In this document: piece by piece, positions 13,059 through 27,089 of the stretch
Layout: every line of letters begins with the position of its first letter
Numbering within the stretch: position 1 is the stretch's first letter
Source of the DNA: Vicugna vicugna
Lineage: Eukaryota
Direction of reading: 5' to 3'
DNA: 64,000 nt
Assembly (NCBI GenBank): GCA_013265495.1
Contig: MU058039.1
Span: forward strand, 808,591-872,590
Made by a program: the position numbers and the translations under genes
Notes under the pieces: model-generated
Told to the model about the DNA's origin: nothing
The model's database searches: none
The model's input: only the letters and a program-made list of their open reading frames with translations

Positions 13059-13072
13059 GTTGCCAGGGCAAC
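13059..13072. promoter_or_regulatory. RFX X-box-like site GTTGCCAGGGCAAC flanked by two CAGCTG E-boxes
   Basis: One mismatch from the palindromic X-box GTTGCCATGGCAAC. CAGCTG lies at 13044-13049 and 13075-13080. Confidence 0.55.
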
Positions 13073-13323: not shown

Positions 13324-13329
13324 TTTAAT
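13324..13329 (-). terminator. DPF1: Candidate DPF1 polyadenylation signal ATTAAA
   Basis: tttaat on + reads ATTAAA on -, about 1 kb past the DPF1 stop, at the end of UTR-like sequence. Confidence 0.55.
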
Positions 13330-15235: not shown

Positions 15236-15348
15236 GTCGTTCTCCGAGGTGCCACACAGGCTGCAGGACTTGCACTCGATGCACTGCCAGCGGTAGGTCC
15301 GCACGGCCGCCGTCATGTTCACCGTGAACTGTAAACACGAGGGGTGTC
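15236..15348 (-). CDS. DPF1: DPF1 exon 10 (PHD1/PHD2)
   Basis: ccag|(G)[37 protein letters not shown]|gtgagt, 113 nt. Confidence 0.97.
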
Positions 15349-15527
15349 CTGGGGGCCGAGGGGCAGGGATGCGGTTAGGGGTCTTCGTGCCCCTGGTGGC
15401 CACTGACTCCTGGGGAAGAACTGCACAGCCCCCCATCCCTGGCTCACAAGGCCTGTGAGCTGCTGTGGCCCATGGCCTGACCCTGCCCAGCCCACAGTGC
15501 CCAGCACCCGTCCGGCAGGCAGCGCCG

Positions 15528-16260
15528 CCATGGCCACCAGTCTCCTGCCCAGCCACCATGGCAACCGCACTCTGCTCCCCAGAACACCATGGCAACCGCA
15601 TTCCATTACCCACAGTGCTGTGGCAACCACTTTCTACCACCCACAACACCGGGCAGCCACATTCTGTTAACCGCTGTGCTGAGGCAGCCACATTCCATTA
15701 CCCACAGCAGAATGGCCAACCGGTTCTGTTAACCGCAGTAACGTGGCAACCACAGTCTCCTAGCCACGATGCCATGGCTGCCACTTTCCACCGAGGGGTC
15801 CCCGCACCCCCCGGCAACCCAAGCCTATTGCACACGCTGCCCCAGCAACTACAGTTACCAACAGGTTTGCACAATGTGCCAACCCTACTGGTCAGCCCAC
15901 CACCCAGTGCAGACGCCCAGCCATTACCCCAGGCCACTAGGGCTCCCTTCCGCTACACCCAATCTCCATGACAATGGTGTTTCACTACACATAATACCGT
16001 GACAACCACAATTCATTAGCCATCATGCTGAGGTGACCACAGTCTACTGCCCACAAGTCCACGTTGGGAAACCACATTCTATTAACCACAACCCCATGGC
16101 CAGCACCCTGTTATCCACAGCACCCAGGCAGCGGCAATCTATTACTATCACAACCCACTACGCACAATGTCTTAGCAACCATCTCTCACTGGTCCCCACT
16201 ATCTGATAAGCACATACCAGTACCCGAAATGCCATGCCAACCACATCCCATTATTCCCAG
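15528..16260. repeat. Degenerate ~31-bp-period tandem array in DPF1 intron 9
   Basis: GGCAACC-like cores recur at 15560, 15591, 15622, 15652, 15683, 15714, 15745 and 15776, and again at 15970, 16001 and 16032. Approximate unit: CCATGGCAACCACATTCYATTACCCACARYR. Confidence 0.85.
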
Positions 16261-16439
16261 AGCCTCCCTGACCCCACTCAGTTTCCCACAATACTCAGCG
16301 GTTGAGTCTGGTTATCCTCAGTCCCCTGGGATGCTCTGCATCCCTCTCAGTCCTCACTCCTCTGCTTCCTATCCTCCACATCTGGGTTCCAGGAATCCTC
16401 TCCACCCTGGCCCCCAGAAACTTCAGGTGGAGGCATCAC

Positions 16440-16559
16440 CTGATCGCCCACAGTCAGCACAGGAGATGAGGTCCTCGGGACACCCCGTCTTCTTGGAGCC
16501 ACCCAGACAGAAGTCACAGTAGCCATTGGGGATGACAGTACCGTCAGGAGCCTTCTTGG
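16440..16559 (-). CDS. DPF1: DPF1 exon 9 (start of PHD1)
   Basis: ttgcag|(A)[39 protein letters not shown]|gtgatg, 120 nt. Confidence 0.96.
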
Positions 16560-16649: not shown

Positions 16650-16700
16650 CTGTGTGTTTCCTCTGTGCCTCAGGGACCCAGGCCAATTCTTTGTAAAATT
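16650..16700 (-). CDS. DPF1: DPF1 exon 8 (51 nt, symmetric phase)
   Basis: cccag|(Q)FYKELAWVPEAQRKHT|gtaggg. Confidence 0.93.
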
Positions 16701-17428
16701 CTGGGAGTGGGGGACAGAGAGAGGGGCTCTCACCATAGGCAAGGTTCCACCCTGCCCCCAGTCTCAGCCCCAGGGGTGGACCCCTTGTCCAGGTGTGGAC
16801 GGGGTGGGGAGAGGGAGTATCTACCCCAAAATGTGGGCAGTAGCAAAAGAGAGTTGGAGGAGCCCAAATAATTCTCATCAGGAACCCACCAACTCTTTGA
16901 GCACAACTGATATGTCCTCTTTATTAGGTGAAAACTTGGCAGATACAGCTTTAGGAAGAGCCCCCAGCTTCCCCACTCATACACACTTCTACCACACTGC
17001 CACCCCCAATGAAGCCCTGTCTAAATAAAAATTAGGTAGATACCACTGGCCAAGATCGGGTATGGAGACAGACACTCAGAAGGAAAATTCTGAACACAGA
17101 GGTGCCTGGGTGTGTAGTGGGAATGGGATAAAGAGACTGCCCTCTTCTGCCAAGGGGTGGGTGGGGAGATGGTTTCTCCACTGGCAGAGGCTCCCCACAG
17201 CCTCCCCCAATCCCTCAGCTGTCTGGGTTGGCATGGGATTGGCATGGGTAGAAGCCAAGGGTTCCCAGGCCACGGACCCTGCCCCTCAGCCAAAGCTTAG
17301 AGAAGGGAGAAAGGGAGGCAGGGAGAGAGGGGAGTCATCTATCACCCCCCTCCCCAAGCTCTAATTGAAACAATAAATCAGACCCAGAAATATTACGCCC
17401 GGCCGGGAGCGAGGGAGAGAGATGGTTG

Positions 17429-17442
17429 GTTGCCATGGCAAC
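17429..17442. promoter_or_regulatory. Perfect palindromic RFX X-box GTTGCCATGGCAAC in DPF1 intron 7
   Basis: Exact match to the canonical palindromic X-box. The palindrome extends to 16 bp (17428-17443). Confidence 0.7.
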
Positions 17443-17592
17443 CCCAGAGCCAGCATCCCCTTGGTTGGTGGGGGGAGGGGACCGCTGAGCTGGAGATTTT
17501 CCAGAAATGTCTAACGTGCCCCCTCCCTCCCAGGCTCCTTAGCCCCCACTCCTAGGGCCCCTCACCACCCCACTCCCTGCCCGCCTGCTCAC

Positions 17593-17724
17593 GTTTATGG
17601 TTGTTTTTCCGGTGGAAGGGTAGGGCGTGGCGTTCGGCATTCTCCTCCCCCTCCTCCTCAGCCAGGTGGGTGTGGGTGTAGTGGTAGCTGAGCCCTGGCC
17701 GGTTCTTATACCGTTTCCCACAGA
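17593..17724 (-). CDS. DPF1: DPF1 exon 7 (most of the C2H2 zinc finger; frame-preserving)
   Basis: ccag|(I)[43 protein letters not shown]|gtgagc, 132 nt. Confidence 0.96.
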
Positions 17725-17924
17725 CTGGAGAGTGAGCAGGGAGGGCCAGTCAGCCCTCCCAGCCCATGCTGCCTCCACCCTGGCCTCCAGGATCACACCT
17801 CCCCACTCTGCCAGAGGCCTAAGCATCCCCCCACCAGGATCCAGCACAGGAGGGAGGGAGCCAGGAGGGGAGAGGTCTCTGGGCCCCCTTCTCTCTCTCT
17901 TCCCCCCTCTTCAGAAGGACTCAC

Positions 17925-18875: not shown

Positions 18876-20252
18876 CTGGGGACAAGGCCATGGTGGGGGA
18901 AGGGGTCAGGCAGAGAAGTCATCCCTGGTGGACTCTTCAAACTGCCCAGATTGGGGAACCATGCTCTGTGCTGGAGGGAAGAGGACTTCCCAACCTCAAC
19001 CAGCAACAAACTCAAAGATTCAACCACACATCCTGGAAAAGATGCCTAGACCTTGGGGAAGGCAGAGCCAGACCCTCAGAGCCACTTGAACACACTCAGG
19101 GGGAGACAAGGCCAGACCTTCATATATACCTAGATACATGTAGGAGACCCGCGCCCCACCCCCTCCAGATCCTTACATCTGGAGAGAACAGACACTCAAA
19201 ACAGGATACACACAGACATAGACAGGGAAGATACAGGCAGATCATCTGAGACAGCTAAACAAAGAGACAGACCCAGACACATGGAGGAGACACAGCCAGA
19301 CCCTTGGGTACACCCAGAGACACTCAGAAAGAGACTATTAGACCATCAGAAACACCCAGATCCACTTGGGAAAGACACAGCCAGACCCCACCATACACCT
19401 GAACACACTTAGAGAAGATACAGACACACCTAGAGAGAACCACTCAGATGGGTACACATATACACAGGGGATATAGACAGTCCCTCTGAAGCAGACACAC
19501 CCCAGCAGACACAGCCAGGTGGACCCACACAGATTCTTGGATATACCCAGACAAGGGAAGGGAAACAGCCAGTGACTCTGATAGTACTGGACACACTCAA
19601 GAAGTGATAAGGCCAGACTCTCGGTTAGAGCAGCACACATGGGGTCGAAACACACCTCATATACCAGACACTCGAGGAAGAGATTCTCCCCGACATTCTG
19701 AAGCATCTGGCCCTCAAAGAAAGAGACAGCCGGACACCCTGATCCACCCACACTCAGGAACAGCTGCACACTCTGATAGACCAGACACACCCAAGGGGAA
19801 GTAAACCTTCTAATATACTTAGAAACACCTGACAAGAGACACAGACACTGAAATCCACTCTATGACCAACGGAAGGAGTTACAACCGGACACTCTGACAC
19901 ACCCAGAGACACTCAGGCACCCACAGGAAGAAATATAGGCAGACACTCTGATACATCCCAGCTCAAAGGGAAGGGATACAAAGACTGGGTTCACCTAGAC
20001 ACATGACAGGTACCACTCTCCTGGAATTCGCCTGGGCCCAAGGAGGAGAAGATACAGTCCAAAGTTCGGTCACTCAAGGAAACCTTGGAGAATCTTTGGA
20101 CTACACCCAGACACACGGGGGCAGACACACAGCCAGCCACTCAGACACTGGCTAGGAGGGACATAAAGGCAGATGCTCAGACGCACACCAGCAGCACCAC
20201 ACACTCCGCGGCCTGTGCTGGGGGCACCGATGGAGGACGAAGCTCCACTCAC

Positions 20253-20596: not shown

Positions 20597-21545
20597 CTGC
20601 GAGGGGCGGGTGAGCGGGCGGGCAGCTGTCAGCAAGGGCAGGCGCACCCGGTCGCCCAGCACCCCTCCCCCAGCCCGCCCGTCGAGAGTGGGTGGGCCGA
20701 CTCCTCCAACCTCGCCTCTCCCCTCCAGTCGCCCCTGGACCCAGGAACCCCCAACCTGGGGCTTAAGCAGGCCTCGAGCCAACAACGAGTGGATACACAC
20801 AATATAGAAACAGACAAAAATACACCGAGACCCATCCGTACAGGCACATATCCAAATCCACAACTCAAACGAATGGCACATAGTCGCACTGGATTCACAC
20901 ACAAAGAGAGACATATCCCAAGACTCACAAAGGAGAAATTGACACATCTCACATATGTGCACACACAAATATCTACTGAAAAACACAAATATCTCAAGTC
21001 CCATAATGTAGAAACAGACAGATCACACACATTTCCTTGCGTAAATATACAATCACCCAACAAAGACACACAACATGCAAACAGATCACACACTACACAC
21101 ACTTATGCGTCCAAAGATACACACAGATACACAAATGTTAAAAGAGAAAAAATGTTAAAATAAACTACCCACATATGCACTTACACATATATCCAAAGGC
21201 ACAACACAAATCTCACACACACACACACACATACACACTATCCAGATACAGTATACAAAGAAATCATAGATTCACACAGGAGACACAAAGATACACAATA
21301 TAGAAGCCAACATCTAAAATGCCACATATTCAGACACACAAAGATACACACATACACAACATAGAAACAGGCAAATCCACTCATATTCACACAAAAATTT
21401 GCACATAAATACATGCATACCTACATATCCAATGACACAGAACACAAATGATGTACAGTTTCAAAGGACATGCACACACACTCAAAGACGCAAATATCCA
21501 AAGGTACCTAGTGTGGAATAAAAGAAATTAAACACATATCCACAC

Positions 21546-21859
21546 ATATCCAAAAAAAAAAAGCAGAAAACCCCAAACCAGGAAGCAGACAAGTGACACA
21601 GACTCCACATCCCAAGACAAAGGTAATACAGGCTTCACTCAAGTTTACCGAGGCCCCTGCGCCCCTAGGCCATTTCACCTTCTCCCCAACCCCGGGGGTC
21701 GAATATCCAAAAAAAAAAAAGCAGAAAACCCCAAACCAGGACGCAGACAAGTGACACAGACTCCACATCCCAAGACAAAGGTAATACAGGCTTCACTCAA
21801 GTTTACCGAGGCCCCTGCGCCCCTAGGCCATTTCACCTTCTCCCCAACCCCGGGGGTCG
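21546..21859. repeat. Near-perfect tandem duplication (156 + 157 bp)
   Basis: 21546-21701 is repeated at 21703-21859. The copies differ by one substitution (ggaagcag/ggacgcag) and by A11 versus A12. Confidence 0.95.
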
Positions 21860-21979: not shown

Positions 21980-22400
21980 CACACACTCGCAACCCCGTGC
22001 AGCCCGGCCCACGGTGACAGCCCCCCAGACACCCCATCGGCCCCACCCCCAGCCGCCACACACACACGCCCGCGAGGACCCGCCTGCGCGCCCTCCCCCG
22101 CCTCCCGCCGGCCCGCAGCACCTCAGGGGGCCGGGGATGACCGTGGCCATCTTGCTCCCCGGGTCCTGCCCCCAGCAGGTCCCCGCCGGGCTGGTCCTCC
22201 CAGCGCTCGGGCGGGCGCTGAGGCCGCCCATCCATTCATTCCCGGGGGGCGGGAGCGCCGGGGCCACCGCCAATCAGGACGGCGGGGCGGGCCCGCGCGG
22301 GCCATGCTGGGAGTGGTAGTTCCAGGCCTGGGGCTGGCCGGACCCCGCGGGGAAAGGGGTCAGAGGTAGGGCCTGGGGCACGCACAGCCACTCACGCACG
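21980..22400. promoter_or_regulatory. DPF1: CpG island / DPF1 proximal promoter
   Basis: Dense CpG. CCAAT at 22270-22274, GC box at about 22282-22291, and a ZNF143/SBS-like GAACTACCACTCCCAG on - at 22307-22322. Confidence 0.8.
22122..22231 (-). CDS. DPF1: DPF1 proximal first coding exon (ATG 22231; internal ATG 22150)
   Basis: MGGLSARPSAGRTSPAGTCWGQDPGSKMATVIPGPL, phase-2 donor ag|gtgctg. Joining exons 1-12 gives 1245 nt, or 414 aa plus stop. Confidence 0.9.
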
Positions 22401-25759: not shown

Positions 25760-26470
25760 GGACTTAGGCGTTTGTGCTCGCAGCCCCATGCAGGGGCAGG
25801 CCCAGCGCCCCGAGAGACTCGGAGGAGGAGAGAGGGAGGAGGAGGAGAGGGAAGCCCCTACCCCCACTCTGGGTGGGGAAACGGCCTCCGCCACCCCCCA
25901 GCCCGCGCCACATTCCTTCACTGACAGCGACAAAGAAGAGGCGCCCCCGCGACCCTGGAGGGGCTCCCGCCCCCAACCCCAGAGGGTGACAGGGGGTGGC
26001 GAGCCCCCCAGGGGCGGGGGCGCTCACTGGGGGCCCCATTCAACTACCATCGGCGTGCTGCGTCCCCCTCCCCAGCGAGGGCGGGGGAAGGGCTGGGGTA
26101 GGGGGCGGGATGGAGGGACGTGGACGGCGGGGACACTCACGACTTGAGCGGGTTCTGAATGGCGGTGGCCATGACCCGCTCGACTGGGCCGCCTCCGGCC
26201 CGGGGCGCCGCTGCCGCCGCGCGCGGGCCCAGCCCGGCCTGCGCCGCCCGCTCTGCCGCCCAGCGCGCTACGATTTCATTCATTCTTGGGGCTGCGGCGC
26301 GAGCGGAGCGGGGCGGGCCGGGGGCGGGGCTCGGCCAATCCCCGCACCTCCCGGCGCACGACGGGACGTGGAGTCTAGGGGCGCGCGGCGGCGCCCGAGG
26401 GTGCCCCTGTCCGGACTACACGTCCCAGGGGGCGTCGGGAGGATCGCGCGCCCATTGGCTACTGAGGATA
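25760..26470. promoter_or_regulatory. DPF1: CpG island / DPF1 distal promoter
   Basis: Dense CpG with GC boxes. CCAAT at 26335-26339, ATTGG at 26454-26458, and SBS-like GGACTACACGTCCCAG at 26413-26428. Confidence 0.8.
26141..26172 (-). CDS. DPF1: DPF1 distal alternative first coding exon (MATAIQNPLKS)
   Basis: gtcATGgcc...aag tc|gtgagt, a phase-2 donor compatible with exon 2. Matches the recalled rodent neuro-d4 N-terminus and resembles DPF3 MATVIHNPLKA. Would give 388 aa. Confidence 0.9.
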
Positions 26471-27089
26471 CAGGGCGGGGCTGGGCTCCCTCCAGAGCAT
26501 CCTTTCCTCCTCCCTGGGGGTGCTCCATCCCCAGCTGGGGCTCTTCATCCTCCAGGCACCGTGGGCGGAGGAGCAGATTATCTCTGGCTTCTGGGTCTCC
26601 CCAGGGTATGTGTATGACCCCAAGGTCTGTCGGGTATTCTTGTCCATGCCTCCTTGTCTGGGTGTCTCTTCTGTGTAAGCCAGCCTGTAAACAAGCACAA
26701 GGGTTAATCAAGCCTTTGTTCACTTACTTAAGTGCCTGCCCGGCATTCTTCTAGGCACTGGGGATTCAGCGTGACCAACAGACAAAGTCGTTGCCCTCAA
26801 GGAGCTAACCTTTTGGTGGAGAAAAACGGATGATAAACAAGCAAATAAACAGACAAGATCCTTTTAGAGAGTGATAAGTGCCGTAGAGAAAGTGGCTTCT
26901 CTGAGGTGACATTTGAACTGAGGCCTGAGGAATTGCCAAGCATGTGCTAGGAGGGGAGGGGAGAAGAGCTTGGCAAAGTCAAAGATCAGTAAGAAAGCTA
27001 GCGTAGTTAGAGCAGAGTGAGTGAGCGGGGGTGGGGGGGTGACCTTGTAGGGCATTATAAAGAAAATGAATTTTGTTCTAAGTGCAATC

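Follow-up and report, generated by a model that had tools for sequence, protein, structure and literature searches.

The X-box consensus is GTNRCC(N0-3)RGYAAC (PMC5752003). Its full site is represented by JASPAR RFX2 MA0600.1 and its half site by RFX5 MA0510.1, and functional X-boxes far from a transcription start site (TSS) are the exception (PMC5838959). RFX1 (MDBP) binds such sites if they are methylated or if T replaces methyl-C (PMC3185043). Repeat DNA supplies a conserved neuronal cis-element in exapted SINE enhancers such as POMC nPE2 (PMC2000970), and CpG deamination has been described as an efficient maker of transcription factor (TF) sites (PMC3228489). Old intronic minisatellites and VNTR regulatory elements form a further group of comparable systems.

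The window, the whole 64-kb stretch of DNA analysed here, contains a decayed 31-bp tandem array in an intron of DPF1 that resembles each of these systems in part. It shares with RFX X-box elements a set of RGYAAC half-sites, one near-full box and, judged by distance, apparent RFX1/2/3 occupancy in mouse. However, it consists of direct half-site repeats at 31 bp and lies 10.7 kb inside the gene. The tandem 31-bp unit and local duplications are those of a minisatellite, whereas the array is no longer homogenised (64% identity), shows unit-by-unit orthology among mammals and has one constrained sub-block. Unlike exapted SINEs, the source is a local tandem repeat rather than a transposon, and its product is a candidate enhancer. 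As in the sites made by CpG deamination, deamination would complete a TF site, but the factor here would be RFX, a word absent from PMC3228489. No description of the DPF1 intron array was found in the literature searched, which left most subscription papers outside. The best explanation, to which we give a probability of roughly 0.68, is that co-option turned three units of an old minisatellite into a candidate RFX half-site element, the other units being a relic. The tandem origin, the CpG decay and the localised constraint on three units are established by the comparisons below. The array and its host intron are located as follows.

15480-16320, no strand assigned: decayed 31-bp tandem array of about 20-27 units, with 64% mean pairwise identity among the 15 best units.
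15349-16439: host intron, 1,091 bp.
16440-16559, minus strand: DPF1 exon before the intron (first half of PHD1).
15236-15348, minus strand: DPF1 exon after the intron (second half of PHD1 and start of PHD2), matching DPF3 and DPF2 PHD fingers.

The DPF gene is on the minus strand, and the array sits in the intron between two PHD-finger exons. We take the gene to be DPF1 from its earlier label and from its convergent neighbour, which ends at about 10930 and is presumably SIPA1L3. Over 53 aa, exon 2 is identical to a cat protein listed in UniRef as 'DPF1-3 N-terminal domain', and a DPF1 poly(A)-like signal lies at 13324. The host was previously numbered intron 9, which holds if the exons at 17594-17725 and 16651-16700 are counted. 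In mouse, Dpf1 and Sipa1l3 have peaks in common (PMC7498320 supplement).

Several other features of the gene were recorded. Two alternative first coding exons, at 26141-26172 (MATAIQNPLK..) and 22121-22152 (MATVIPGPL..), have separate CpG-rich promoters about 4 kb apart. Beside the proximal promoter, in intron 1, a 158-bp direct duplication that is 98% identical (21546-21859) is either very recent or an assembly artefact. Degenerate AGACAC/ACACA-rich short-period repeats, A+C rich on the plus strand, occupy 18880-20190 (intron 3) and 20780-21540 (intron 1) and are possibly further decayed tandem arrays. Near the ends of the host intron, an 18-nt pair (15349-15366 and 16400-16417) is 78% complementary; it may join the 5' end of the intron to the polypyrimidine tract or be due to chance.

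The 31-bp period is recovered both by lag self-comparison and by TRF. Self-identity at lag 31 is 0.429 over 15528-16260. In 300 dinucleotide shuffles, the highest value at any lag from 10 to 59 has a mean of 0.316 and never exceeds 0.350, and no part of the 64 kb has stronger lag-31 windows than the array. TRF detects it at 15578-15707 with period 31 (score 110) and period 61 (score 146). These head-to-tail units, recurring above chance, characterise a minisatellite. Further lag peaks, at 61/62 and 123, are traces of local duplications of two and four units. At about 15480-16320 the array covers some 78% of the intron and is wider than the 15528-16260 first noted. In a wraparound profile alignment 27 units pass the threshold, 15 of them well aligned; the fringe units are over-fitted, because the profile was fitted on these same units. 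All 15 core positions listed earlier are present and in register, and the roughly 20 diverged units are real, but they do not keep a strict period: some steps measure 30, 37, 35, 29 and 47 bp, and a 126-bp poorly aligned stretch interrupts the 31-bp register. Exact GGCAAC occurs in only five cores and CCATGGCAAC in two, and RGYAAC half-sites number eight on the plus strand and one on the minus strand. Among sequencing runs sharing more than 0.18 of its words, the region occurs in only two organisms, A and B, both close. In 14 DNA-like runs from these two, 0.92-0.97 of the region's words are present, which fits a fixed array.

The units also preserve a record of their decay. The 15 best units are 20% diverged from the consensus at non-CpG columns. 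Three adjacent column pairs are a TG/CA/CG/TA mix in 13 of 15 units each (0.32 expected under column shuffling, p=0.001), and two further pairs show CG/CA. The founding unit therefore had up to five CpGs, which were lost by deamination, and this pattern together with the tandem units bears out the earlier proposal of an old minisatellite. CG is retained just before the core in four of the 15 units; since this CpG sits directly before the core, the CCATGGCAAC form would derive from a CG form. The contrast between kept cores and drifted spacers that had been described among units is slight at most. Mean column identity is 0.69 for the 10-base core and 0.61 for the rest (15 units, p=0.12); for the hexamer it is 0.77 versus 0.61 (15 units), with a one-sided p=0.036 for a segment picked post hoc. 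Of the four invariant columns, only one belongs to the core; the other three are in the spacer.

More distant sequences were also searched. A metagenome scan with the exon next to the array intron returned three loci. The fish-like dpf1 locus L003, with the same two exons and a 2.3-kb intron, has no 31-bp period (best profile score 9), and none is found in 930 bp of the fish-like DPF paralogue L002. Locus L001 was rejected as a chance match to the exon; at positions 1558-1756 it carries a 31-bp tandem repeat of 6.4 copies that is unlike and unrelated to the DPF1 unit (score 2). A prokaryote genome scan gave 0 matches to the conserved 24-mer.

In other mammals, the orthologous intron was read through spurious off-frame ORFs in predicted proteins by frameshift-tolerant alignment to the window. 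Silent positions are invisible in such protein readings, and the matches were selected for likeness to the query. Eight readings were used: P0011-P0014 (four of 123 candidates), P0035-P0037 (three of four matches) and P0039 (one of five candidates), among which P0013 and P0037 share changes and so are not independent. Seven extra readings for the other intron end took one member each from seven of the eight clusters that extend into the intron; P0005 was omitted for its resemblance to P0021. P0038 (an unrelated 879-aa protein), P0033 and P0034 (near copies of P0013), and P0001 and P0006 (gene models without intron sequence) were left out. The frames themselves are not proteins, since the orthologues shift frame and the open frames have no Pfam match, although short exon controls, one of them off-frame, likewise gave none; a protein-coding array was rejected on these two grounds. 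The readings divide the array as follows.

15553-15644, no strand assigned: block A, 92 bp, three units with cores at 15560, 15591 and 15622.
15587-15612, plus strand: best-kept stretch, the RFX half-site CCATGGCAAC and the following spacer, with a CpG that is apparently retained.
15645-15790, no strand assigned: block B, five units of uneven, intermediate conservation.
15791-16320, no strand assigned: remainder of the array, whose tested end (16190-16311) diverges like the flanking intron and whose 15835-16190 segment is almost without orthologue coverage.

Conservation is concentrated in block A. There, 213 of 238 codons are identical with two indel events across the eight readings, compared with 141/235 and 26 events in the flank at 15369-15522, 154/212 and 14 events in block B, 84/148 and eight events at the far array end, and 140/233 and 34 events in the flank at 16312-16430. 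In the six readings that span both, block A retains 159/178 codons against 141/235 for the flank (pooled p=7e-12; five of six singly p<0.05), corresponding in simulation to nucleotide divergences of about 5% and 20%. All eight readings peak on the same units, though the queries spanned 350-510 bp. Identity is highest at 15586-15616 (77/80 codons), and at the codon-fixed positions of 15587-15612 none of the eight readings has an inferred substitution, with a 2-base gap near 15609 in P0014. The best-kept unit of block B (15679-15709, 40/47 codons) carries a second copy of the block A spacer. By these protein-level readings block A, and block A only, qualifies as a conserved non-coding element, with an estimated divergence well below that of the neighbouring intron, and it is likely to be functional.

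The readings show that the array is present outside the window's own lineage as well. The 20% flank divergence far exceeds that of organisms A and B, and the array therefore predates the window's lineage. Unit-specific features align one to one; thus, homogenisation ended before the sampled lineages split. Two further predictions find no support. Cores are not kept better than spacers across species (in block A, 5/24 core versus 6/41 spacer positions changed, p=0.52), and the array as a whole is not kept as a phased cluster, its constraint peaking in three units and dropping at the far end to that of the flank. Of the five core changes, those at 15561, 15562 and 15624 yield GACAAC, which RFX tolerates, or GGTAAC, another RFX-compatible form. 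The latter fits the RFX consensus as quoted in PMC5752003. Block A spacing is free of indels in seven of eight readings and is broken elsewhere in the array. Exact phasing is not obligatory, because P0014 has two block A gaps and the adjoining unit in the window is 30 bp.

The array holds no zero-mismatch X-box and five one-mismatch places. Three full or near-full X-boxes lie in and around it.

15552-15565, plus strand: near-full X-box, one mismatch to GTNRCC(N0-3)RGYAAC.
17429-17442, no strand assigned: palindromic X-box without a mismatch, in a DPF1 intron further upstream; it may be the counterpart of mouse peak +9395.
13059-13072, no strand assigned: X-box without a mismatch, about 250 bp past the poly(A)-like signal of DPF1; it may be the counterpart of mouse peaks +13816/+13830.

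The latter two are the sole zero-mismatch X-boxes in 64 kb, and the array lies between them. The surroundings of the intronic box (17330-17480) resemble a conserved non-coding element (TAATTGAAACAATAAATCA and adjoining sequence). With a length of about 13.6 kb, mouse Dpf1 would end shortly before +13.8 kb, so that this position, like the box at 13065, would lie just beyond the gene. ChIP-seq in mouse ependymal cells gives Dpf1 peaks at about -208, +9395 (RFX3 only), +11324/+11378/+11350 (RFX1/2/3) and +13816/+13830 (RFX1/3) (PMC7498320 Table S8). Among these the middle peak alone is common to RFX1, RFX2 and RFX3; its numbers (39 of 7440, 53 of 1250 and 589 of 9318) are not positional and are below those of the peaks mapping to the perfect boxes (PMC7498320), and we infer that these numbers are ranks. 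Dpf1 has no row in the supplements of PMC4498915 and PMC10884155 as available. An RFX1 peak far from a promoter is also listed for mouse Daw1, at +22834 besides the promoter peak (PMC7498320 Table S8).

The mouse peaks were mapped by distance only, from a TSS estimated at 26300, upstream of the ATG at 26172, and not from mouse sequence or exon coordinates. A single scale of 0.95 puts them at 17435, 15590 and 13065, the largest residual being 102 bp; the best triple among all one-mismatch sites and both promoters is 17440, 15560 and 13070 (89 bp). When the outer peaks are pinned on the two perfect X-boxes, the middle peak falls at 15478-15531. Random offsets match the fixed triple equally well in 0.085% of 20,000 draws, whereas 9% of random offset sets fit equally well if any triple of 15 X-box-like sites is allowed. 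Mappings without the array or from the proximal promoter (22250) were rejected for their worse fit, with residuals of at least 313 bp. The distances suggest RFX1/2/3 binding at the orthologous mouse site. For the RFX link first drawn from the half-sites alone, they are independent support, while the phased cluster and the core bias that accompanied it are not borne out. About 170 bp upstream of distal exon 1, a CCAAT box stands beside an X-box-like word (26445-26480), possibly the counterpart of the mouse peaks at -214/-202 in the promoter.

Candidate targets are DPF1, in neurons, and neighbouring genes such as SIPA1L3. The mouse data come from ependymal cells, which are not neurons. In these cells, Table S1 of PMC7498320 gives no fold change for Dpf1 in any Rfx knockout, while Sipa1l3 is slightly down in Rfx3-/- (logFC -0.46) and Spint2 is down in Rfx2-/- (-0.97). 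A simple reading as an enhancer of Dpf1 is weakened, because Dpf1 is unchanged in Rfx-knockout ependyma.

Other explanations account for parts of these data. Block A could be truly conserved for the site of another factor, RUNX-like, TEAD-like or a zinc-finger protein that recognises the entire unit, with RFX incidental or bound elsewhere. RUNX-like and TEAD-like motifs are ACCRCA and RCATTCC, respectively. Spacers as conserved as cores would suit such a site, as would RCATTCC at 15598 in the invariant stretch, its repetition at 15690 within the unit that ranks next in conservation, and the eight occurrences of AACCRCA in the array. However, motif counts in a repeat are not independent, these motifs are consensus words rather than matrix matches, and a three-factor RFX peak maps to block A by distance; this alternative is unlikely. 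Quite improbable is a role at the pre-mRNA level, with block A serving either as a GU-rich splicing element that binds protein or as a hairpin some 200 nt before the 3' splice site. Block A does lie 200-300 nt from the acceptor, and folding of the transcribed strand is somewhat more stable than that of shuffled sequence (z is -3.25 at 15540-15660 and -2.64 across the array). Against this, G/U-rich repeats fold easily, the opposite strand gives z -0.98, and the array has no Rfam match. The structure lends no support to the splicing idea raised earlier, in that eight of the 17 changes inferred at paired positions disrupt pairing and no compensatory change occurs. A hidden exon is disfavoured by the lack of a pyrimidine tract before the GGTAATG donor-like words.

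A neutral minisatellite relic, in which the RFX likeness is a chance trait of the founding unit and the conservation a search artefact, would explain most of the array, which does behave so, and the matches were indeed chosen for likeness to the query. It is very improbable for block A, given that the flank is about four times more diverged in the same readings, that eight of eight peak on the same units, and that a CpG in the best unit reads as kept while its equivalents have decayed in most others. Alternatively, an old transposable element could have contributed the array as its internal or subterminal repeat, which would be compatible with later co-option. Internal minisatellites are common in old DNA transposons and LTRs. 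Against this origin, no second copy occurs in the other 63 kb of the window (best profile score 12.6 versus 41 in the array), five of the eight protein matches carry the DPF1 intron flank and none resembles a copy from elsewhere, and the array edges lack a convincing terminal inverted repeat. We give this origin the least credence.

For the co-option of three minisatellite units, the following course may be envisaged. Tandem amplification of a CpG-rich 31-bp unit produced the array in the DPF1 intron before the sampled lineages split, a step for which the evidence is partial. The array then ceased homogenising and decayed mostly by methyl-CpG deamination. Decay of CpG to CpA before the core would have turned a site that RFX1 reads only if methylated into the ordinary CCATGGCAAC form. 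Three adjacent units, and a few more weakly, probably came under purifying selection; their conservation is observed, and its cause is proposed. Block A would bind RFX1/2/3 jointly through a series of half-sites, each about three helical turns from the next (31 bp is 2.95 turns at 10.5 bp), probably with a partner that recognises the spacer; the amplified unit may, however, simply have had this length. Equal conservation of core and spacer is not expected from RFX alone, and a second factor or a shape requirement could explain it. Together with the two bracketing perfect X-boxes, block A may act as an intronic cis-regulatory element. Because the full-X-box and core-over-spacer tests fail, it is neither a classical X-box nor a proven phased cluster. 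It would be best read as an intronic, putatively RFX-bound conserved element. A stronger version, in which a deamination-edited minisatellite became a helically phased half-site array that binds RFX1/2/3 cooperatively and better than the perfect palindromic X-boxes next to it, and drives DPF1, the neuron-specific BAF subunit, in an RFX-to-BAF loop, is doubtful.

With some 25 even-aged sister units in one intron, three frozen and the rest drifting, the locus is a built-in experiment on selection from repeat to TF site. If the mouse mapping holds, the strongest Dpf1 RFX site is a run of half-sites and not either palindrome, so that half-site cooperativity and helical spacing would be directly testable. 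BAF activity in neurons is reported to open X-box sites (bioRxiv 10.1101/2023.10.13.562244), and RFX control of a neuronal BAF subunit, if true, would form a feedback link. Should the phased-array reading also prove true, conserved enhancers would have an overlooked source in decayed minisatellites whose age puts them beyond the reach of repeat annotation.
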